Origin: Pseudomonadota bacterium
GTDB taxonomy: Bacteria; Pseudomonadota; Gammaproteobacteria; Ga0077536
DNA length: 64,000 bases
Direction: 5' to 3'
Assembly (NCBI GenBank): GCA_043734785.1
Contig: JAYTEX010000175.1
Coordinates: 704 to 64,703, forward strand
The translations under genes were made by a program, and so were the position numbers. The notes beneath the pieces were generated by a model, which had not been told where the DNA came from, made no database searches, and was given only the letters and a program-made list of their open reading frames with translations. Shown piece by piece: positions 3,327-58,607 of this stretch (positions are counted from its first letter, which is position 1; every line of letters starts with the position of its first letter).

Positions 3327-3524
3327 TCATGGGGCGTTTCCCTGGGACTCCATGAGTTCATCCACGCCTTCGCGTGAACTGACCAGCACCCCTTCGTCGT
3401 ATTCGGCACCGACTCGCATGGCGTCGATCAGCATCCAAAGCATTAACACGCCCGAGACTCCCCAGGCCACATATTCGAGTACGTTCCAGAAATCCATACT
3501 GGCTTCCTCTTGCGCAATCGTCAC
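3327..3524 (-). CDS. small hypothetical membrane protein (65 aa), translationally coupled upstream of the permease
   Basis: The ORF has one hydrophobic segment (VAWGVSGVLMLWMLI). Its ATGA start overlaps the stop of the upstream ORF at 3521-3524, and it sits 28 bp before the permease start. Confidence 0.35.
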   Translation of the reverse strand: MTIAQEEASMDFWNVLEYVAWGVSGVLMLWMLIDAMRVGAEYDEGVLVSSREGVDELMESQGNAP

Positions 3525-3994
3525 TCATCGAATTTTTCTGCGATCACTTCCCGATACTCGCGTTCAGAAAGACGCAGTATGCCGAAGTGATAAATCACCA
3601 GCAGCGCGACCGAGATGCCCAGCGTGAGGGGATTGACCGAGTAATCGAAGCGCTTATTGATGATGGCGGCTGCGGCCACAGGGTCTTTGCCGAGTTTCTC
3701 CCATTGGGTGGCCATCGTTGCGTTCTGTCCGAGTGCTTCCCAGGTGGGCGGGCTTGATGCACGTTCTGTCGCAGCACCTGCGTCCGGTGGCGCCCGCATA
3801 TTGGCCAGCCATAGCGGTGCGCTGAGTGACACGAAAACCAGAACTAAAACGAGTAAGGCATCAAACACCATGCCCATGTGGCCCTGTTCGGGCGGTTGAT
3901 AACCCGGCTTCGGCATCGGAACCCTGCCGCAAAGATTATTGCTTGATTGACGACTTGCGTTATCCAGCATCAAGATGCCGGATATCGAGCCCAT
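3521..3994 (-). CDS. hypothetical membrane protein; the true start may be internal
   Basis: The ORF has hydrophobic segments (LVLVLVFVSLSAPLW; LTLGISVALLVIYHF). I recognise no domain. It is co-oriented with the permease. Confidence 0.35.
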   Translation of the reverse strand: MGSISGILMLDNASRQSSNNLCGRVPMPKPGYQPPEQGHMGMVFDALLVLVLVFVSLSAPLWLANMRAPPDAGAATERASSPPTWEALGQNATMATQWEKLGKDPVAAAAIINKRFDYSVNPLTLGISVALLVIYHFGILRLSEREYREVIAEKFDE

Positions 3995-7810: not shown

Positions 7811-8065
7811 GATGAGTCTGCTTTGCTTGCGGGGAGAAGTACGAAGTCGTGGCCGTGATGGAGGTCGACAGCGGCGATGACATGAACGCGATCGTGCACA
7901 GCCTGCCGATCTCGAAACAGGGTCTTATGCGCATATCGTGCCAGAGGTCAACTGGATTCCGCTGCGGTCGTATGAGAACTGAGCGATGCAACTCGAGGCG
8001 CTGGCAAGTGTTGACGAGTCGCGCTAAACACTAACCCCGTGCCCCGCGAGCTGCCGGGGCGAACC

Positions 8066-48993: not shown

Positions 48994-51189
48994 ATGCGTA
49001 AGTTCACCTATGGCACCGTGTTACTGGTCGTCTGTGCTCTCACGAGCTCCACCCATGCGTTAGTTCCGACGGTCGCATTGGACCAACTCGTGCCGCACGC
49101 AGAGCATCGGCGCGCCACCCGCCTGATTACCCATTTCATCGCCAACTACCACTACAGGAAAGCGCCGCTGGATGACGCCCTGTCGGAAGTCATCTTCAAA
49201 AACTACCTCGACGCCCTTGATCCGACCAAGAGCTACCTATTGCAGTCTGACATCGATGAGTTTGCCGCCTACTCGCGGGAATTAGACGATGACCTGCGAA
49301 ATTCGGACCTTGATTCTGTCTACCAGATCTTCATCCGTTATCGGCAGCGCGTGGAAGCGCGCATCGGATTCGCCACGAAGCTACTCGACGTGCCGATGGA
49401 CTTTAAGGTGGATGAATCCTTCGACTTCGACCGTGAAAAGGCCAAGTGGTCGGCGACCGAAGCTGAACTCGCAGAACTTTGGCGCAAGCGCGTCAAGAAC
49501 GACTGGTTATCCTTGCGTCTCTCGGGCAAGCAGGATGCCGCTATCGCCGATACCTTGAAAAAGCGCTATCAGGGCCTCATTAGACAAACCGCGCAGTTCA
49601 ATAGCGAAGATATTTTTCAGACCTTTATCAACGCTTACACGACGGCGATCGATCCCCATACCGCGTATTTTTCACCGCGTACTTCTGAGAATTTCAAGAT
49701 CAGAATGAGCCTGTCGCTCGAAGGTATTGGCGCCGTATTGCAAAGCGATAACGAGTACACCCTGGTGCGCGAAGTCGTGCGCGGAGGCCCTGCGGGTCTG
49801 AGTGGCAAACTGCACACGAACGACCGCATCGTCGGCATCGGTCAAGGCGAAAAAGGCGACCTGGTCGACGTCATCGGTTGGCGCCTGGACGATGTGGTGG
49901 ATTTAATCCGCGGCCCGAAAGATTCCGAGGTTGTGCTGCAAATACTGCCGAAAGGCGCCAGCCCGGATGGCGTGACCAAACTTATCAAACTCACGCGCAA
50001 CACGATTCAACTCGACGATCAGGCCGCGCAGAAAAAAATCCTCGAAGTGCCGCAAGGTAGTGCCAGGATAAAACTCGGGATTATCGAAATTCCTACCTTC
50101 TACATGGACTTCGAGGCACGCATGCGCGGCGACGAGAGTTATCGCAGCACCACGCGCGACGTCCACAAACTCATCAATGAGCTGCGCGCCGAAAAAGTCG
50201 CCGGGATCGTGATTGATCTGCGTGCCAATGGGGGCGGCTCGCTCTCCGAGGCGACTGAATTGACCGGTTTGTTTATCGACACAGGCCCAGTGGTGCAGGT
50301 CAGAAACTCGCAAGGACGCGTACAGCTCGAGCGCGATACCGAAGCGGGGGTTGTCTACGATGGACCGCTCGCCGTGCTCGTCGATCGTAATAGTGCGTCA
50401 GCCTCCGAGATTTTCGCGGCGGCGATTCAAGACTATCGAAGAGGCCTAGTGCTCGGTGAGCCGACATTCGGCAAGGGTACCGTGCAAAACCTCGTTGACC
50501 TGAATCGATTCGACGAGAAAGCAAACGGCAAACTTGGCCAGCTTAAGGCCACGATCGCGCAATTCTTCAGAGTCGAAGGCGACAGCACCCAACATCGGGG
50601 CGTTATTCCCGATATCGCGTTCCCAAGTGGATTCAGTGATAAGAAACAAGGCGAACGCGCGTTGGAGCATGCACTCCCGTTCGCGCACATTGCCGCAGTA
50701 CGCTTCACCCCCGTGCAACCTGCCCAACCCCATGTCGAGGAGTTGCGCGAGATACACAACAAGCGGGTCGCTCAGGATGCCGCCTATCAAGCATTGCTGG
50801 CACAAGAACACGCGTTACAAGACGCTGCGGATACCTCAATTGTCACGTTGCTAGAAAGTAAGCGCAAAGAAGAACACGAGAAAGCTCGACGCGAGCAGAA
50901 CGAACGCGAGAACCAGATCCGTGCTGCCCACGGTCAACCCCCGAAAGCCCTTAAATCGCCCGAAGAAGCAGCCGCAGAGATCGATGATCTGCCGGACGCC
51001 GAAGACCCGGCGAAGGATAAGGACAAGTTCGATGTCGTATTGGAAGAAGCCGCCAATGTGCTGCGAGATTTGTTGCTGGTATCCGGCATCCCGGCTCCGC
51101 AATTCGCTGATTCCGACGCTTCGCCCGCTCCGAAACCTGCGATCTCCGCGGCAAAAGCCAACCGGCTCGCACCACACCTCCAGCAGTGA
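48994..51189 (+). CDS. prc: carboxy-terminal processing (tail-specific) protease
   Basis: It has a signal peptide (MRKFTYGTVLLVVCALTSSTHA), a PDZ region, and S41 catalytic regions (IDLRANGGGSL, TFGKGTVQ). It has a Glu/Lys-rich C-terminal tail. Confidence 0.85.
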   Translation: MRKFTYGTVLLVVCALTSSTHALVPTVALDQLVPHAEHRRATRLITHFIANYHYRKAPLDDALSEVIFKNYLDALDPTKSYLLQSDIDEFAAYSRELDDDLRNSDLDSVYQIFIRYRQRVEARIGFATKLLDVPMDFKVDESFDFDREKAKWSATEAELAELWRKRVKNDWLSLRLSGKQDAAIADTLKKRYQGLIRQTAQFNSEDIFQTFINAYTTAIDPHTAYFSPRTSENFKIRMSLSLEGIGAVLQSDNEYTLVREVVRGGPAGLSGKLHTNDRIVGIGQGEKGDLVDVIGWRLDDVVDLIRGPKDSEVVLQILPKGASPDGVTKLIKLTRNTIQLDDQAAQKKILEVPQGSARIKLGIIEIPTFYMDFEARMRGDESYRSTTRDVHKLINELRAEKVAGIVIDLRANGGGSLSEATELTGLFIDTGPVVQVRNSQGRVQLERDTEAGVVYDGPLAVLVDRNSASASEIFAAAIQDYRRGLVLGEPTFGKGTVQNLVDLNRFDEKANGKLGQLKATIAQFFRVEGDSTQHRGVIPDIAFPSGFSDKKQGERALEHALPFAHIAAVRFTPVQPAQPHVEELREIHNKRVAQDAAYQALLAQEHALQDAADTSIVTLLESKRKEEHEKARREQNERENQIRAAHGQPPKALKSPEEAAAEIDDLPDAEDPAKDKDKFDVVLEEAANVLRDLLLVSGIPAPQFADSDASPAPKPAISAAKANRLAPHLQQ

Positions 51190-51251: not shown

Positions 51252-52352
51252 ATGCTCCTCAGATTTTTTTTGATGATACTCGTGGCAGGGGCAATCTTCG
51301 GGGGTCTGGCGCTCACCAAGCAGCGTCAGTTTCGGGAGATGGCCGCAAAATTTTCCACGCCCCCGCCCCCCACCCACGTGGCAGTCACCACGGTCACACG
51401 AAAATCCTGGCCGCGCATCATCAAGGGCACGGGCAGTCTCACCGCAGTACAAAACACCTTTGTGACCAACGAAGCGCCCGGGATCGTGACGGCCTTGAAC
51501 TTCGACTCGGGCCAAATCGTCAGCAAGGGGGATGCGCTCGTGACCCTCGAATCGTCTGTCGATACGGCGGTGCTCAAAGGACTCCTCGCCGAACAACGCC
51601 TGGCCGAGGTGCAATTTGAGCGCACGGCGAAGCTCGTGCGTGATCGCACCATGGCCCAGTCGCAATTCGACGAGGCTGCCGCGCGGCGGGACCGTGCTGC
51701 GGCGGAGGTCGGCGCGCAGCAGGCCCAGCTCGCCAAGAAAACCGTGCTGGCGCCATTCAGCGGCACCTTGGGCATTCGTCAGGTCGATGTTGGCGATTAT
51801 CTAAAAGCAGGTTCGAGTATCGTCGCCTTACAGACAGTGGATCCGATTTTTCTGGATTCCGCGATTCCGGAGCGGTTTATACCGCTGCTCAAGGTAGGCC
51901 AGGCAGTCAGCATCCGCGTTCAGGCTTACGGTGATGAGCGCTTCTCAGGTCGTTTGACCGCAATCGAGCCCGGGGTTGATACCGCCACCCGCATGATCCG
52001 CGTGCGTGCCGAGCTCGCCAATACGGACCAGCGACTGCGCTCTGGCATGTTTGTAGAAGTCGAGGCGGTGCAAGACGCAACCGAGGAGGTCGATGTCGTG
52101 CCGGCAACGGCGATCACCTACAGCCCGTACGGCAACTCGGTGTTCATCCTCGCCCACGGCGACGGCGGGCTGACGGTGGAACGCCGCCAGATCGAAACGG
52201 GCGCCTCGCGCGGCGGCGAAATCGCCATTACCAAGGGACTGCAGGCTAGCGAACAAGTCGTCGCAGTCGGCCAGAATAAGTTACGTAACGGCATGCGCGT
52301 CGAAATCGTCACGGACCACGCCCTGCGTACTGATCAAACCCCAGCGCACTGA
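51252..52352 (+). CDS. RND efflux periplasmic adaptor (membrane fusion protein, HlyD family)
   Basis: It has an N-terminal TM, coiled-coil and beta-barrel pattern, and lies immediately upstream of an RND permease. Confidence 0.85.
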   Translation: MLLRFFLMILVAGAIFGGLALTKQRQFREMAAKFSTPPPPTHVAVTTVTRKSWPRIIKGTGSLTAVQNTFVTNEAPGIVTALNFDSGQIVSKGDALVTLESSVDTAVLKGLLAEQRLAEVQFERTAKLVRDRTMAQSQFDEAAARRDRAAAEVGAQQAQLAKKTVLAPFSGTLGIRQVDVGDYLKAGSSIVALQTVDPIFLDSAIPERFIPLLKVGQAVSIRVQAYGDERFSGRLTAIEPGVDTATRMIRVRAELANTDQRLRSGMFVEVEAVQDATEEVDVVPATAITYSPYGNSVFILAHGDGGLTVERRQIETGASRGGEIAITKGLQASEQVVAVGQNKLRNGMRVEIVTDHALRTDQTPAH

Positions 52353-52361
52353 GCAACTCAC

Positions 52362-55300
52362 GTGGCGTTCACCGACATTTTCGTGCGCCGACCGGTACTG
52401 TCCAGTGTCGTGAATTTACTTATCCTGCTACTCGGCGTGCGCGCGATCTTCTCGCTCGAACTGCGGCAGTTTCCGAAAACGGAAAACGCGGTTGTGACGG
52501 TCACGACGGCCTACCCGGGTGCGAGCAGCGATCTCGTGAAGGGCTTTATCACCACGCCGCTGCAGCAAGCGATAGCGGAATCCGACGGGATAGATTTCAT
52601 GTCCTCGAGTAGCCGTCAGGGCGTGTCGATGATCGAGGTCACCATGAAACTCAACTACAGCGCGCATAACGCGGTAGCGGAGATACAAAGCAAGGTTGCC
52701 AGTCAGCGCGGTGTGCTGCCACGCGAAGCCGATGATCCCATCATCGAGGCCAAGGTCGGGGATCCGACGTCGCTCATGTACATCGCGTTCTACAGCGACA
52801 GTATGTCTCCGCAGCAAATTCAGGATTATCTGTTGCGCGTGGTCAGGCCCCAATTGCAGGCCCTGCCAGGCGTCGCGAAAGCGAATATCTTCGGTAAAAA
52901 TGGCTATGCCATGCGGATTTGGCTCGACCCCAAACGCATGGCGGCGCTCAATGTTACCGCCGCCGATGTGCGCGATGTGCTCCAGAAGAACAACTACCTC
53001 GTGGGGCCCGGTTCCACTCGTGGACAGTATGTGGGGGTTGATCTCGATACCACCACGGACATCAATCGCGTTGAGGATTTCAATGATCTGATCATTCGCG
53101 CGCACGGTGGTGCACTGGTCCGCTTATCGGATGTCGCGCGCTCTGAGCTTGGCGCTGAAGACTACAACTTCACCAGTTGGTACAACGACAACACCGCGAG
53201 CTATATCGGAATCGATCCGACCCCTGGTGCCAACCCTTTGACTGTCGCGCAACAAGTGCGCAGCGAAATCCCGAAGATCAAGAGCCAGATGCCAAGCGGG
53301 CTACAGGTCATGATCCCCTATGACGCGAGCCAGTTCATTGAAGAATCGATCAAGGAGGTTTTTGTCACGCTGGGAGAGGCAGTATTGATCGTGCTACTGG
53401 TGATTTATTTATCTCTGGGCTCTTTGCGGGCCGCGCTGATTCCAGCCGTCGCGGTGCCGCTTTCAATTATTGGTGGCGCTTTCCTGATGCTGCTGCTCGG
53501 ATATTCGATCAATACCCTGACTTTGCTCGCCATGGTGCTCGCGATCGGACTCGTCGTCGATGACGCCATTGTGGTGGTCGAAAACGTACATCGCCATCTG
53601 CAGCAAGGGTTGCAGCCCGTGGCGGCGGCACTGGTGGGTGCGCGCGAACTGCGTCTGCCGATCATCGCGATGACGACCACGCTCGTCGCAGTTTATGCCC
53701 CGATCGGCTTCATGGGCGGGCTCGTCGGCACGCTGTTCACCGAGTTTGCATTTTCACTCGCAGGGGCAGTCCTGATTTCGGGCGTGGTCGCCCTGACGCT
53801 ATCGCCGATGTTGAGTTCCAAGGTGCTTAAGGCGGGGCACGACAGTGGGTTTGAGCGCCTGGTCGAGCGCTTCTTCACCGCGCTCGGCAATGGCTACCGT
53901 AGGGTCTTGAGCTGGATGCTCGACGGCTGGCCGGTGTTGATCGTATTCGCCATGTTGGTGATGCTCAGCATGTTTCCGATGTACATGGTCAGCCAGAAGG
54001 AACTCGCGCCATCCGAAGACCATGGCATCCTGTTCGTCGCGGCGCGTGGCCCGGAGGTTGCCACGCTCGATTACACCAAGGCATACACCCGCGAAATGCT
54101 GCAGGCCTACCAATCCATTCCTGAGTACAACGAGAGCTTTTTCATCCTCGGCTTCGGTTCACCGAATTCGAGTTTCGGCGGATTTAGACTGAAACCTTTG
54201 GCCGAACGCACACGTAGCCAGGCCGAGGTTCAACAGGCGCTGCAACCTAAACTCAACAACGTGACGGGTGTGCAGGCCAATGCATTCTCGCGGCCCAGCT
54301 TGCCCGGGGCTGGTCGCGGGCTGCCGATCCAGTTCGTGGTGCTTACCGCTGCGGATTATCCTCAGCTCGACGCAAGCGTAGACGAGCTTCTAGGCGCGGC
54401 CATGAAAAGCGGAAAATTCATGTTCCTGCAGAAATCGGTGGAATTTGCGCGACCTAAAACGACCGTGGTCGTCGATCGCAACCGCGCCGGTGCACTTGGG
54501 ATTCAGATGGAAGATGTGGGCCGCGAACTTGCCACTATGCTCGGTGGCAACTACGTAAACTGGTTCAATCTGGAAGGACGCAGCTACAAGGTGATTCCGC
54601 AGGTACCGGATGAAATGCGGGCCACCGAAGACATGCTGCAGGGCTACTACATCCGCACTGCGAGCGGCCATCTGGTGCCGATGTCGAGTATTGTGTCGTT
54701 CGAATCCACGGTCGAACCCAGCGAACGCGCTCAATTTCAGCAACTCAATTCGCTGACCTTGCAGGGCTTGACTGCGCCTGGCGTCGCGATGGGGGATGCG
54801 CTGCAGTTCCTGAACGACCAAGCGGCGCTTGTGCTGCCAGATGGCTTTGCCTGGGATTACGCGGGGGTGTCTCGTCAGTACATCCAGGAAGGAAACGCCT
54901 TGATCGTAACCATGTTGCTGGCCGCAATGGTGATCTACCTGGTGCTGGCTGCCCAGTTCGAGAGCTGGCGCGATCCACTGATCATTATGATGTCGGTCCC
55001 GATGTCCATTGCGGGGGCGCTGGCGTTCATCATGTTGGGATTCGCGACCATTAATATTTACACACAGGTAGGACTCATCACCTTGATCGGCTTGATCGCG
55101 AAGAATGGCATCCTGATTGTCGAGTTCGCGAACCAGCTCCAACTGGAGCACGGTTTGAGCAAGCGTGCAGCCATCGAGCAGGGCGCAATGATCCGGTTGC
55201 GTCCAATCTTGATGACGACCATCGCGATGATTGTCGCCATGGTCCCCTTACTGACGGCGGCCGGCCCTGGCGCGGTGAGTCGGTTTCACATCGGGCTCGT

Positions 55301-55466: not shown

Positions 55467-56240
55467 ATGCACGCGAATCTTTTTGATCTCACCGGCAAAG
55501 TCGCATTAATTACCGGCGGCAGCCGCGGTCTTGGACGCGAGATGGCGCTGGCGTTTGCCGACCATGGCGCCCACGTGGCCATCGCCAGCCGTAAACTGGA
55601 TCAGTGCGAAAAAACCGCGGCCGAAATCGCGGCGCGCGGCGTGCAATCTTTCGCACACGCCTGCCATGTCGCGAAATGGCCGGAGATTGAGGCGCTGGTC
55701 GAGGCGACTTACGCCCGCTTCGGACGGGTCGATATCCTGGTCAACAATGCGGGCTTGTCTCCGCTCTACCCATCGCTGGATGCGATCACCGAAGAACTGT
55801 TCGATAAGGTGATCGGGATTAACCTCAAAGGCCCGTTTCGCTTGAGCGCATTGGTCGCGAAACGCATGATGGCGGGCGATGGCGGCTCGATCATCAATGT
55901 GTCGAGTACTGCCGCCGTCACCCCGAGCCCAGCGTCGGAACCCTACTGTTCTGCAAAAGCGGGGCTTAACGCGCTGACGAGATCGATGGCATACGCCTAC
56001 GGCCCTAAGGTGCGCGTGAACTGCATCATGCCGGGTCCGTTTCTGACGGACATCTCCAAAGCCTGGGACATGGAAGCGTTCGCTGCAGGTGCGAAAATCA
56101 ATATCCCCCTGCAGCGCGGCGGGCAGCCGCACGAGATCGTCGGCGCCGCGCTTTATCTCGCCAGCAACGCCGCCAGTTTCACGACGGGGACCATCATCGC
56201 CGTGGATGGCGGCTCGCAGGGCAACCCCCGCATCCTCTAG
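55467..56240 (+). CDS. SDR-family oxidoreductase
   Basis: It has VALITGGSRGLG and a YCSAKAG catalytic motif. Confidence 0.85.
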   Translation: MHANLFDLTGKVALITGGSRGLGREMALAFADHGAHVAIASRKLDQCEKTAAEIAARGVQSFAHACHVAKWPEIEALVEATYARFGRVDILVNNAGLSPLYPSLDAITEELFDKVIGINLKGPFRLSALVAKRMMAGDGGSIINVSSTAAVTPSPASEPYCSAKAGLNALTRSMAYAYGPKVRVNCIMPGPFLTDISKAWDMEAFAAGAKINIPLQRGGQPHEIVGAALYLASNAASFTTGTIIAVDGGSQGNPRIL

Positions 56241-56257
56241 CTGCCTGCAACAAGCAA

Positions 56258-56362
56258 GCGGGGAAATCGGGGACAGACCACGATTATCGGTCGTTCATTT
56301 AATCGTGGTCTGTCCCCGATTTCCGTCGCTGATTTCCGCTACCTGATTTCCGCTATCACGGC
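56258..56362. repeat. Repeat A: about 100-bp element with a 26-bp-arm perfect palindrome (ggaaatcggggacagaccacgatta / taatcgtggtctgtccccgatttcc) followed by 3 x CTGATTTCCG iterons; direct repeat of 57203..57298
   Basis: Read directly. The loop is tcggtcgttcattt. The tail overlaps the ParE stop codon. Confidence 0.75.
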
Positions 56363-56652
56363 GTTTGTTGCGCCGCGTGCTTCACTCTCAAAATCTGGAC
56401 GGTGCGGGCCTCGGCCAGCACACGATAAAAAACGATGTAGTTCGGATGCACGACCAGTTCGCGCAACCACTCGGGCAAGCCCGGCCGCCCTTGGCGGCCA
56501 AGTTCTGGATGCTGTGCAAGCGGCTCGGTCTTGTCGCGCAGTCCCTGGCCGAAGCTCTTGGCCCGCGTCGGGCTGTCCTTGCCGATGTAGCGCACGATGG
56601 CGCGCAAATCCTCGCGTGCCATCGGCCGCCATTCAATGCGGCAAGGCAGCAA
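56356..56652 (-). CDS. type II toxin, RelE/ParE family (ParE-like)
   Basis: ...IEWRPMAREDLRAIVRYIGKDSPTRAKSFGQGLRDKTEPLAQHPELGRQGRPGLPEWLRELVVHPNYIVFYRVLAEARTVQILRVKHAAQ matches the ParE/RelE pattern. The probable TTG start overlaps the end of the upstream antitoxin gene. The longer annotated ORF (from 56772) is an out-of-frame overlap. Confidence 0.75.
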   Translation of the reverse strand: MLPCRIEWRPMAREDLRAIVRYIGKDSPTRAKSFGQGLRDKTEPLAQHPELGRQGRPGLPEWLRELVVHPNYIVFYRVLAEARTVQILRVKHAAQQTP

Positions 56653-57085
56653 TGTCGGCGTCCATCTCGGCCATGACTTCATCGTGCGGAATGCTCGTCC
56701 GTGGGTCGTCAATGGATGCCTGAATCTCGCCGGCCAGCCACTGGTTATAGGCGGCGGCTTCGTGTGCTCCACGCATGGCCTCGGCGCGGTTTTGCCGGCT
56801 GCGGGTCATGTCCTTTTGGTCGGGATTCCAGTTGGTGGCGTCGAGCTGCGCAACGGTAATACCCACGTCGCGCAACACGATCAGCGCAGAAGTAGGATTG
56901 CCAAAGCGGCGCGGCTCGGTGCTGCGGGCCTTCACCAAAAAGGCGTCTTGGCCGCTGCGGGTGGCGATTTCAACAAAGAAGCCGCCGCCCTGCCCTTTCA
57001 GGGTTACACCCTTCACGCCGCCAGCGCTGACCGTAGCGCGTAGCTGCTCTAGTGTCATGCTGTGCATGGTGCGCTCCTTTATCAA
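56633..57085 (-). CDS. putative antitoxin (150 aa): ParD/RHH-like C-terminal region fused to an unrecognised N-terminal domain
   Basis: It lies immediately upstream of, and overlaps, the ParE-like toxin. The C-terminus ...AAYNQWLAGEIQASIDDPRTSIPHDEVMAEMDADIAALP resembles ParD-type antitoxin tails. The N-terminal roughly 90 aa (..KGQGGGFFVEIATRSGQDAFLVKARSTEPRRFGNP..) are unassigned. Confidence 0.55.
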   Translation of the reverse strand: MIKERTMHSMTLEQLRATVSAGGVKGVTLKGQGGGFFVEIATRSGQDAFLVKARSTEPRRFGNPTSALIVLRDVGITVAQLDATNWNPDQKDMTRSRQNRAEAMRGAHEAAAYNQWLAGEIQASIDDPRTSIPHDEVMAEMDADIAALPH

Positions 57086-57202
57086 TCTAGGTTACCAGCA
57101 AGTCTCTATTGTGCACGAGTGATAGAAACCATGCGCGCACTTCGTTCGAGACGGCGCTAATCCACCTAGTGGCATTGGCGCCTGTGCTATCAGCGGCGAG
57201 GG

Positions 57203-57298
57203 CGGGAAATCGGGGACAGACCGCGATTATCGGTCCGATTATCGGTTGTTCATTTAATCGTGGTCTGTCCCTGATTTCTTCCTGATTTCTTTGATCGC
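57203..57298. repeat. Repeat B: second copy of the palindrome-plus-iteron element (one arm mismatch, internal gattatcgg duplication, 2 x CTGATTTCTT)
   Basis: gggaaatcggggacagaccgcgatta...taatcgtggtctgtccctgatttc lies upstream of the toxin-antitoxin promoter region. Confidence 0.75.
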
Positions 57299-57674
57299 TC
57301 GAGTCTGTGGCTGTGTGGCGCTCCGGTGCGTTGGTATTCTTCATGCAAGCTCCTTGGTCTGAATTGGAGCCTAGCAAAAAATCAATCTACACAACATTCA
57401 GGACACCCTCAAATGCTGGCCGGTAGGGGAACCAAATGAGGCGTGAGCACTGCTCTAGCAACCGCGAATCTCGCAAAAATCGAATACGCTCCTGTGCCGC
57501 CGGTGTGATTGGAGGTATCCCGGGCGGTTTCCGTACCAGTTCCGTACTGGGTTCTTTAGGGCGCTAGAAAATAAGATAACTCTTTTATTTTATTGGCGAG
57601 CGATGTAAGGATCGAGCCTACGACCCTCGCCTGGAGAGGACCGTCGTTCGGGTTACGCACGTCACCCGACGATT

Positions 57675-58607
57675 TCAAGCACTGAGATCGCGTATCACGT
57701 AATTCAGGGCCGTGAAGTACACCGATTCCCGCGCGAATTCAGCTTCGTCAGCCTGAATCCCGGCATAGGCCTCACTGGCCAGATAGTCTTCGATATCGTT
57801 CATATTCGCGAACGACATGACCCCTACGCCATCGAAACGATCGCCCACCGGATCGTAGAGCTTATCGCCCTCGGCGCTGATATTGACGAGTTGCGCATAG
57901 CGCCGAAGTAGCCGCGAGCCGGGTGCTGAACGGGTCACGAGATCCGCATGCTGCGCCATCCAGTGCCCGCGAAATTGGGCACGCGTGAGTTCGGCGTTGC
58001 GCACATGGGTTTTGATTAGAATGACCGGATCGCGGCGCCTATCGCCTTGTAGCACCACATGCTCTTCGGCGACATGGAAGCCGAACCCGCGAATAAACAC
58101 CGCTTCGTCGGGCACAATCTTGTTCCCGTACTTACCGGGGCCAAGGTTAAAAAATGACTCCAGATCCTGTTTAGAACGATAGCCCAGTTGCGCCATGCCG
58201 TCCCACTGCGGGCGCTGGTAGGGCGCGCAGCGGGTGGAAGGATCTTTCACGAGCATGCCGCTTTCATCCAGCTGTGGGCTATACGGAGGGGGTCGCGCTG
58301 ACGTGGGGCCAGCTGGCACGCGATGGTGCTGCAGGTAATACGTTAGCAGCCCGGTCTGGTGATCCTCCGCACCATCCACATGGAGAATGTTCGGGCCATG
58401 GACCTTCCGCCAGTATTCATCGAACGCTTCCCATTCGAGCTGAGGCTTGTCCGTGAGCGCCAGACGCCGGTCCTGAACACCCTGATCTTCGGTGCCCTGC
58501 CCTGCACGATTGACGTTGTACTGTGGACGGGCGTGCCGGAGCGCTTCCGGCGCCTGGCTGTCAGCGCGAATAGCCAGGGCATTCAACACGATTAAGGGTG
58601 ATTTCAT
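57675..58607 (-). CDS. secreted protein with two EthD-like domains (tandem)
   Basis: It has a signal peptide MKSPLIVLNALAIRADS. Both halves are EthD-like: half 1 (..EWEAFDEYWRKVHGPNI..TYYLQHH..WDGMAQLGYRSKQDLESFF) and half 2 (..RAQFRGHWMAQHADLV..LRRYAQLV..FDGVGVMSFANMNDIEDYLASEAY). Confidence 0.5.
   Translation of the reverse strand: MKSPLIVLNALAIRADSQAPEALRHARPQYNVNRAGQGTEDQGVQDRRLALTDKPQLEWEAFDEYWRKVHGPNILHVDGAEDHQTGLLTYYLQHHRVPAGPTSARPPPYSPQLDESGMLVKDPSTRCAPYQRPQWDGMAQLGYRSKQDLESFFNLGPGKYGNKIVPDEAVFIRGFGFHVAEEHVVLQGDRRRDPVILIKTHVRNAELTRAQFRGHWMAQHADLVTRSAPGSRLLRRYAQLVNISAEGDKLYDPVGDRFDGVGVMSFANMNDIEDYLASEAYAGIQADEAEFARESVYFTALNYVIRDLSA

Follow-up and report, generated by a model that had tools for sequence, protein, structure and literature searches.

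Background

The closest described relatives of the repeats considered here are TIRtrons, in which a RAYT-like gene (a TIRYT) lies between terminal inverted repeats (TIRs) that share the motif GGGGWSAS, and whose TIRs also recur at other genomic sites, singly, as dimers or in clusters (Di Nocera, De Gregorio & Rocco 2013, BMC Genomics 14:522; PMC3733652). Most TIRYTs fall into subclass 2.1 of Quentin et al. 2018 and possess a C-terminal helix-turn-helix (HTH) domain of the Bac_DnaA_C, HTH_23 or HTH_28 type (PMC6006769). Here we examine 64,000 nucleotides of contig JAYTEX010000175.1 (assembly GCA_043734785.1, a gammaproteobacterium of the lineage Ga0077536), hereafter ‘the window’, in which a ParE-type toxin-antitoxin (TA) pair stands between two palindromic direct repeats, dimers A and B. 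Coordinates refer to this 64-kb window, and L-numbers denote loci or contigs retrieved for comparison. The evidence set out below makes it very probable that dimers A and B are gene-less, REPIN-like copies of a TIRtron that lie beside a plasmid-derived ParE module in a strain-specific insertion.

Several other systems resemble parts of this arrangement. In the REPIN/RAYT system (Bertels & Rainey 2011, PLoS Genet 7:e1002132), as here, short repeats in inverted orientation and a short spacer make up a long, non-autonomous hairpin, the repeat flanks a single-copy Y1 transposase gene, and the copies are intergenic, often at the 3' ends of genes. Classical REPs are, however, lineage-specific, whereas the arm described here is conserved across proteobacterial classes and occurs at low copy number in the window; it lacks the GTAG/CGTC tag, has the tips (G)GAAATC and CGATTA, and is only weakly self-complementary when taken singly. 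Elements of the IS200/IS605 group and their miniature inverted-repeat derivatives (MITEs; PATEs) share the Y1 HUH transposase, the lack of target-site duplication, structured ends and gene-less miniatures, but their ends are two differing subterminal imperfect hairpins and not a terminal inverted repeat. Integron attC sites are likewise palindromes of 60-120 bp that flank small promoter-proximal cargo such as TA pairs. Finally, the ParE/PaaA2-type modules found next to repA on plasmids such as pKUN4507_1 (NZ_LC155906) agree with the TA pair of the window in gene order, in promoter region and in 88% of nucleotides over antitoxin and toxin.

Two inverted dimers and their dispersed arm

Self-comparison of the window confirmed, with small corrections, the original prediction that palindromic repeats flank a two-gene TA module and that nothing but the toxin and antitoxin genes, both on the minus strand, lies between them (Table 1). 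Dimers A and B are direct repeats of each other (families D1 and D2; 95-97% identity), each built from two inverted arms around a spacer. Dimer A (GGAAATCGGGGACAGACCACGATTA and TAATCGTGGTCTGTCCCCGATTTCC) is as perfect a palindrome as had been proposed, its arms being 100% complementary, although they measure 25 nt and not 26; dimer B is indeed imperfect, yet by two G/A differences (G-T in the fold) where one mismatch had been described, with 24 nt matched (57205/6-57229 and 57255-57278/9) at 92% complementarity. Because both contain the spacer sequence TCGGT(C/T)GTTCATT they must be sister copies, and a 12-nt tandem duplication (CGATTATCGGTC) extends the spacer of dimer B to 25 nt. Folded as single-stranded DNA (ssDNA), dimer A attains -30.5 kcal/mol (z -10.4), as an uninterrupted 25-bp stem on either strand, and dimer B -24.7 kcal/mol (z -7.5). 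Within the 64 kb the 18-mer GGAAATCGGGGACAGACC occurs four times at up to three mismatches, against 0.07 expected, and all four occurrences are arms of these two dimers; neither the remaining 62 kb nor the flanks of related contigs hold a further arm copy at up to six mismatches.

Beyond the window, the arm is a repeat of ~25 nt (GAAATCGGGGACAGACCACGATTA; TIR consensus GAAATC(G/A)GGGACAGACCACG(A/T)TT) that is dispersed in multiple copies across many bacteria. A scan of one genome per species with the exact 24-mer GAAATCRGGGACAGACCRCGATTA returned ten loci in Alpha-, Beta-, Gamma- and Deltaproteobacteria, which have only the ~25-nt arm in common with the window, and the 21-nt TIR core (AATCRGGGACAGACCNCGWTT) matched at least 120 stretches of metagenome contigs. 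At the genome loci and the listed metagenome loci the arm is present either singly or as inverted dimers, 72-73 of which, among the matches listed, combine strongly conserved arms with spacers of 1-130 nt and of unrelated sequence. Dimers can be dense, with three in 14 kb in L060, three in L008 and several in each of L093 and L094, compared with two per 64 kb in the window. No target-site duplication beyond chance was detected around 73 dimers among the matches listed, as is expected for HUH/Y1 elements. A literature search by sequence string returned unrelated primer matches only.

It is the company kept by the arm in genomes and contigs other than the window's own that links it to a transposase. 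In L005 (arms at 2926 plus and 3744 minus), L069, L091 and L132, inverted arms in plus-then-minus order bracket a gene for a Y1_Tnp (IS200-like) protein of ~230-250 aa, and in L006, L096, L102, L104 and L128 a single arm adjoins such a Y1 gene at the end of the contig. These cognate proteins match Y1_Tnp (PF01797) at E about 1e-13 and have REP_Tyr_transpos as their best NCBIfam match, yet their 65-77 bits stay under the 80-bit cut-off of that model, which sets them apart from RAYTs, and the 20.8 bits scored against the NCBIfam IS200 model, far below its cut-off of 55, set them apart from IS200/IS605. The arm reads GAAATCGGGGACAGACC, and the GGGGACAG within it fits the GGGGWSAS of TIRtrons, with which the family further shares a RAYT-like Y1 gene between TIRs, the occurrence as singles, dimers and clusters, and moderate family sizes. 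Each palindrome of the window therefore has the outer structure of a TIRtron minus its gene and is the analogue of a REPIN. Dimers A and B are on this account members of a known but poorly studied element class and fairly ordinary mobile DNA, and the original prediction's second option, a pair of REP/MITE-like hairpins, is borne out by an arm that is dispersed, forms inverted dimers with variable spacers and elsewhere brackets a RAYT-like Y1 gene. The differences from described TIRtrons are that the window contains gene-less dimers only, with no transposase, and that the cognate proteins are devoid of a DnaA_C or HTH domain detectable by Pfam.

In mechanistic terms, each repeat would be a non-autonomous mobile element of 63-75 bp, consisting of two inverted ~25-nt TIRs and a short spacer, and the palindrome would represent a TIRtron that has lost its gene. 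Copies would be made in trans by a Y1 transposase through an ssDNA intermediate, in the manner of IS200/IS605 and REP/RAYT.

The family also has a marked preference for the ends of genes. A stop codon of an open reading frame (ORF) of at least 100 aa lies within 0-15 nt of 25% of element sides, against 1.6% at random positions, so that a repeat block starting 1 nt past the ParE stop codon is typical of the family and does not mark a cassette boundary. Most neighbours are housekeeping genes, for instance those for RbfA, L31, DsbB, TatC, MscL and PEP carboxylase, among others. In L060, two dimers 1 kb apart enclose a GYD-domain gene and a small lipoprotein gene in place of a TA pair, which argues that a ‘dimer-cargo-dimer’ order arises wherever dimers are dense.

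The tandem ‘iterons’ that had been described behind each palindrome turn out to be copies of the arm tip, two of them at dimer A and a single additional unit at dimer B. The window has exactly two occurrences of CTGATTTCC (56329 and 56343), both just beyond the right arm of dimer A, although the count alone is weak evidence because 8 of 100 shuffles reach at least two; at dimer B one additional CTGATTTC (57282-57289) adjoins the arm tip. Both motifs duplicate the outer tip of the arm. Counting the arm tip itself, dimer B has two AGAAATCAGG units in the window and three in the alignment of L012 and L018, a strain-variable number that points to slippage. Across the family, arm-tip duplications occur on the outer side of 18 of 172 arms, as against 8 of 172 on the inner side. 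The CTGATTTCC repeats would accordingly be slippage-type duplications of the arm tip.

A second family, with arms AATCGGGGTCAGAGCCCGATT (its GGGGTCAG also fits GGGGWSAS), was observed in L093 (6879-7005), L094 (83-151 and 4349-4417) and L145 (~2880). It co-occurs with the GGGGACAG family in some contigs, and in L062 and L088 the two are paired as hybrid dimers.

A toxin-antitoxin module shared with plasmids

The operon between the dimers reads antitoxin first and ParE second, with the domains of a type II TA system and an AAGGAG ribosome-binding site 7 nt ahead of the antitoxin ATG at 57067. The exact antitoxin protein is encoded on 11 public contigs. In L013-L017 the module recurs at 98.6% nucleotide identity over exactly 56355-57206, with other flanks and no repeats, and the homology stops at the inner edges of both repeat blocks. 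Its counterparts on conjugative plasmids are 88% identical in pKUN4507_1 of Achromobacter and in an Enterobacter plasmid, and ~80% identical in plasmids of Sulfuriferula and Acidovorax, the plasmid homology extending to 57134. In the two plasmids inspected, pKUN4507_1 and that of Sulfuriferula, the module has repA nearby and a hairpin-plus-T-run terminator behind it, and the flanks of L014 and L017 match this plasmid context. Dimer A stands exactly where the plasmid terminator follows ParE. The module of the window thus differs from its plasmid relatives in being chromosomal and in being cut 1 nt past the ParE stop, with loss of the plasmid terminator.

Judging from these alignments, the TA pair is a plasmid-derived stability module. 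The original prediction had treated the TA pair and its repeats as a unit, but the same pair without repeats is found at 98.6% identity in other contigs and also on plasmids, an occurrence that the prediction had itself named as refuting the cassette reading. The dimers are not integral to the TA system.

The module has also lost sequence where its two genes meet. Relative to the plasmid homologues, 34 nt are missing from the antitoxin/toxin junction (56620-56660), between direct repeats GCCTT(G/A)CCG, and the deletion is common to all aligned metagenome copies (L012-L018). It removes the last five residues of the antitoxin (KKKRA) together with the ParE ATG and six codons, a further difference from the plasmid modules. 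With the native start codon gone, ParE must start at TTG 56652 or at ATG 56622, and the junction-deleted toxin, as read from its sequence, may be attenuated.

Two other repeats were noticed around relatives of the module. In the plasmids L154 and L155 (~3390-3420) an inverted repeat, TGTC(G/A)TTTTCAGAAG(G/A)CGACTGCAC, apparently of the Tn402/Tn5053 type, lies immediately ahead of the TA promoter. Another repeat (…GGGGTCAGGTCTCGCTTTGTAGCATTCG…GGTGCCGGAG(C/T)TTTGCTTATTTG) is present in L013 (~1490-1600), L014 (~1210-1420), L018 (~975-1059) and L027 (~7850-7900); the GGGGTCAGGTCTCGCTTTGTAGCATTCG repeat lies downstream of the ParE module in dimer-free contexts and, in L027, downstream of the unrelated RelB/YafQ pair. 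In L014 it lies between two tail-to-tail copies of the TA module, an arrangement that may be an assembly artefact.

The insertion and its strain distribution

Comparison of related strains, which the original prediction had suggested, showed that the locus is polymorphic, with borders not at 56258 and 57298 but at 56255 and 57622. In six contigs of ~98% identity (L020, L021, L022, L024, L026 and L028) the site is empty, and 73 bp separate the stop codon of the short-chain dehydrogenase (SDR) gene from that of the EthD gene; homology between the window and these contigs ends at 56252-56254 and restarts at 57623-57628. The insertion is carried at the same chromosomal locus, with both palindromes, by L011 (99.9% identity over 17 kb) and L012 (97.6%). 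From left to right it contains 7 nt, dimer A and its tip repeats, the TA module of 852 bp, dimer B and its tip repeat, and a tail of 327 bp, and neither a duplication nor an inverted repeat was found at its junctions. Since no arm copy lies elsewhere in the window and the sites of sister strains are empty, both dimers belong to the insertion.

Table 1. Features of the SDR-EthD interval, in window coordinates
Feature	Position	Strand	Remarks
SDR gene (short-chain dehydrogenase), host flank	55467..56240	+	adh_short_C2, E 3.8e-60; stop 21 nt before dimer A
Strain-specific insertion, ~1.37 kb, between SDR and EthD genes	56255..57622	.	sister strains without insertion
Dimer A	56262..56324	.	inverted 25-nt TIR arms 56262-56286 and 56300-56324; 13-nt spacer
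Tip repeats of dimer A	56325..56354	+	GTCG-CTGATTTCC-GCTAC-CTGATTTCC-GCT; partial tandem copies of outer tip of right arm; end 1 nt short of ParE stop codon
ParE-family toxin gene	56356..56652	-	Pfam PF05016, E 1.3e-20; RelE/StbE TIGR02385
Antitoxin gene, 144 aa, PaaA2/RelB-type C-terminal toxin-binding motif	56633..57067	-	PF21217, E 2.7e-13; NCBIfam NF050103
Upstream (promoter) region of TA operon	57068..57204	-	inside conserved 852-bp module 56355-57206
Dimer B	57205..57279	.	arms 57205-57229 and 57255-57279; 25-nt spacer; sister of dimer A
Tip repeat of dimer B	57280..57295	+	TTC-CTGATTTC-TTT; copy number strain-variable
Tail of insertion, 327 bp	57296..57622	.	GC 0.51 against 0.59 for window; AT-rich stretch ctagaaaataagataactcttttattttatt; no recognised gene or RNA
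EthD-domain protein gene, host flank	57675..58607	-	PF07110, E 1.7e-21

How such a block came together can be sketched in outline. Most likely, the elements would have inserted beside the TA module either in a previous host or at another site of this genome, where a cognate transposase was active, and the block would then have reached the SDR-EthD site by some recombination event. The 21-nt arm core was found neither among IMG/VR viral contigs nor among PLSDB plasmids (E <= 0.01). It was probably on a chromosome that the elements and the plasmid-derived module came together. Look-ups of donor context through the antitoxin and an 85-aa ORF across dimer B led back to the same chromosomal setting or to plasmid-like ones free of the repeats, and to no others, and the tail itself has no homologue in plasmids or in the fetched loci beyond the same insertion, nor a credible Rfam match. 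That ORF, on the minus strand from 57344, has a good AAGGAG site and reads through dimer B; it is probably spurious.

Other variation was seen in the neighbourhood. In L027 (6750-7937), from the same species and locus, most of EthD is deleted and a RelB/YafQ-type TA pair occurs, a variant which makes the SDR-EthD neighbourhood look like a hotspot for TA-carrying rearrangements. Further strain-specific indels lie upstream, in L022 (~1422-1523) and L026 (~3446-3547), relative to window positions 50751-50989 and 52343-53013, the one in L026 falling in the region of an RND pump gene. Near the right junction, the minus strand at 57596-57640 reads GGGTCGTAGGCTCGATCCTTACATCGCTCGCCA, which resembles the 3' end of a tRNA (T-arm, acceptor and CCA). 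A tRNA or att remnant was considered here and rejected, as ARAGORN reports no tRNA; the string spans the junction and is partly native intergenic DNA, so the resemblance is probably due to chance.

Weighing the explanations

That the dimers are gene-less TIRtron copies is the reading we favour, and several observations sit uneasily with it. The insertion does not end at the elements, its left junction lying 7 nt from dimer A and its right junction 343 nt past dimer B, so that the elements by themselves do not account for the arrival of the block. A tblastn search of the 64 kb detected no Y1 transposase gene, so that the cognate enzyme of dimers A and B was not located there. Over the C-terminal ~100 aa of five cognate transposases Pfam gives nothing at E <= 5; Bac_DnaA_C (E 3e-9) was detected in the L001 protein alone, which is more distant and does not lie between copies of the TIR of the window. 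Two copies per 64 kb is below the density typical of REPIN populations. Folding of one arm on itself yields a weak hairpin (-3.3 to -5.8 kcal/mol), and frequent G to A variants break one of its pairs; covariation gives no support to recognition of the arm as a REP-like ssDNA hairpin, and for these reasons such recognition is not claimed. To our knowledge, no TIRYT has been tested biochemically, the class having been described by comparative genomics only. Lastly, at five of the ten exact-24-mer genome loci TA genes lie within about 200 nt of an arm, which would not be expected of elements indifferent to TA genes: in L008 an arm begins 2 nt past the stop codon of RelE, in L006 one overlaps a VapC gene at its end, and in L001 one sits 57 nt upstream of a Phd/VapC pair.

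The exact-24-mer loci were also seen to be rich in TA genes more broadly (L001 400-4100; L005 1400-4600; L006 1-2900; L002 1-2300; L008 2900-3550), with VapBC, Phd/Doc, MazEF, HipAB, HigB, ParD, CcdA-like and RelE/Phd assigned by reading the translations and not by Pfam, and with several arms touching a toxin stop codon or sitting ~60-110 nt upstream of an antitoxin gene.

The alternative that survives best, although we regard it as unlikely, is a composite single-strand transposon, in which the dimers and the TA pair (~56262-57279) would move jointly, with the outer arms as ends, a Y1 (HUH) enzyme acting in trans and the TA pair as stabilising cargo. The outer arms (56263 plus, 57278 minus) do have the same plus-then-minus order as the TIRs that bracket transposase genes, and the left junction is close to dimer A, but the insertion runs on well past dimer B and its right end is not a TIR. 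The lack of both dimers in the rest of the window and in sister strains implies that they came with the TA module, and their common spacer that they are sister copies; nevertheless, all contigs with the dimer-TA-dimer order show one and the same chromosomal context, no second site being known; L018, the sole discordant contig, may be a chimera of the assembly, since more than 141 bases are identical between the TA copies. The proximity of TA genes at half of the exact-24-mer genome loci would be a trace of composite movement, yet the larger metagenome samples do not reproduce that excess: a Pfam survey of 121 ORFs within 150 nt of TIRs and of 70 ORFs beside the closest TIR variants, run with no distance-matched control, gave ~4 TA-like hits, and TA genes are thus not enriched beside TIRs in either sample. 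Where dimers are dense, as in L060, they enclose cargo of other kinds.

Less probable still is that the palindromes are regulatory or terminator hairpins that the host retains as bidirectional terminators, as insulators or as 3' structures that stabilise mRNA, with mobility irrelevant. As RNA the hairpin is very stable (-58 kcal/mol, z -10), which upholds part of the suggestion that dimer A is a strong bidirectional terminator; however, the arms of the window are followed by GATTTCC or GATTTCTTC, with no T-run, and a terminator scan flags neither dimer. Many family members elsewhere do end in GATTTT and so resemble intrinsic terminators, members abut stop codons far above chance, and dimer A replaces precisely the terminator of the plasmid ParE gene. 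Against a local origin as terminators speaks a 21-nt sequence that is conserved across proteobacterial classes, tolerates free spacers and brackets a transposase gene, all of which argue for a mobile element. Such a role is compatible with the TIRtron explanation as a secondary effect: at most, the dimers would give the converging SDR and ParE transcripts a stable hairpin at their 3' ends, a stabilising function that the predicted folds make possible. Rfam contributes nothing here, as no family reaches its gathering score over the whole window and a relaxed scan of 56200-57700 produced spurious miRNA-precursor-like matches (17-29 bits against cut-offs of 40-150), which were discarded.

TA pairs are common cargo of chromosomal integrons, and palindromes of attC-like length, one perfect and one imperfect, here flank exactly one small operon; the proposal that the pair is a gene cassette between attC-like or other site-specific recombination sites can nonetheless be set aside as highly improbable, for 56241-57320 contains no core site of the form GTTRRRY (R') or RYYYAAC (R''), an IntI1 probe detected no integrase-like ORF in the 64 kb (all E > 0.6), genes called within 10 kb on either side include no integrase domain, there is no cassette array, the bottom-strand fold of dimer A, a perfect palindrome, is an uninterrupted stem with none of the extrahelical bases on which strand choice in attC depends, the arm recurs as a dispersed repeat tied to another class of enzyme, the Y1 transposases, and the TA module also occurs without repeats.

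Conclusions

Were the composite reading true, any DNA between two REPIN-like elements would be movable between replicons, by a route of cassette mobilisation apart from both integrons and DDE composite transposons. For annotation, the message is that palindromes with 25-bp arms around small operons should not be taken for attC sites. The locus poses the questions of whether Y1 enzymes move REPIN-like dimers, whether two dimers can carry cargo between them, and whether their hairpins end or stabilise transcripts. With near-identical gene-less dimers in an insertion whose presence varies among strains of 98% identity, beside a plasmid-derived addiction module, and with a family arm sequence that is unusually conserved across proteobacterial classes, it offers a natural case for the activity of TIRYTs.

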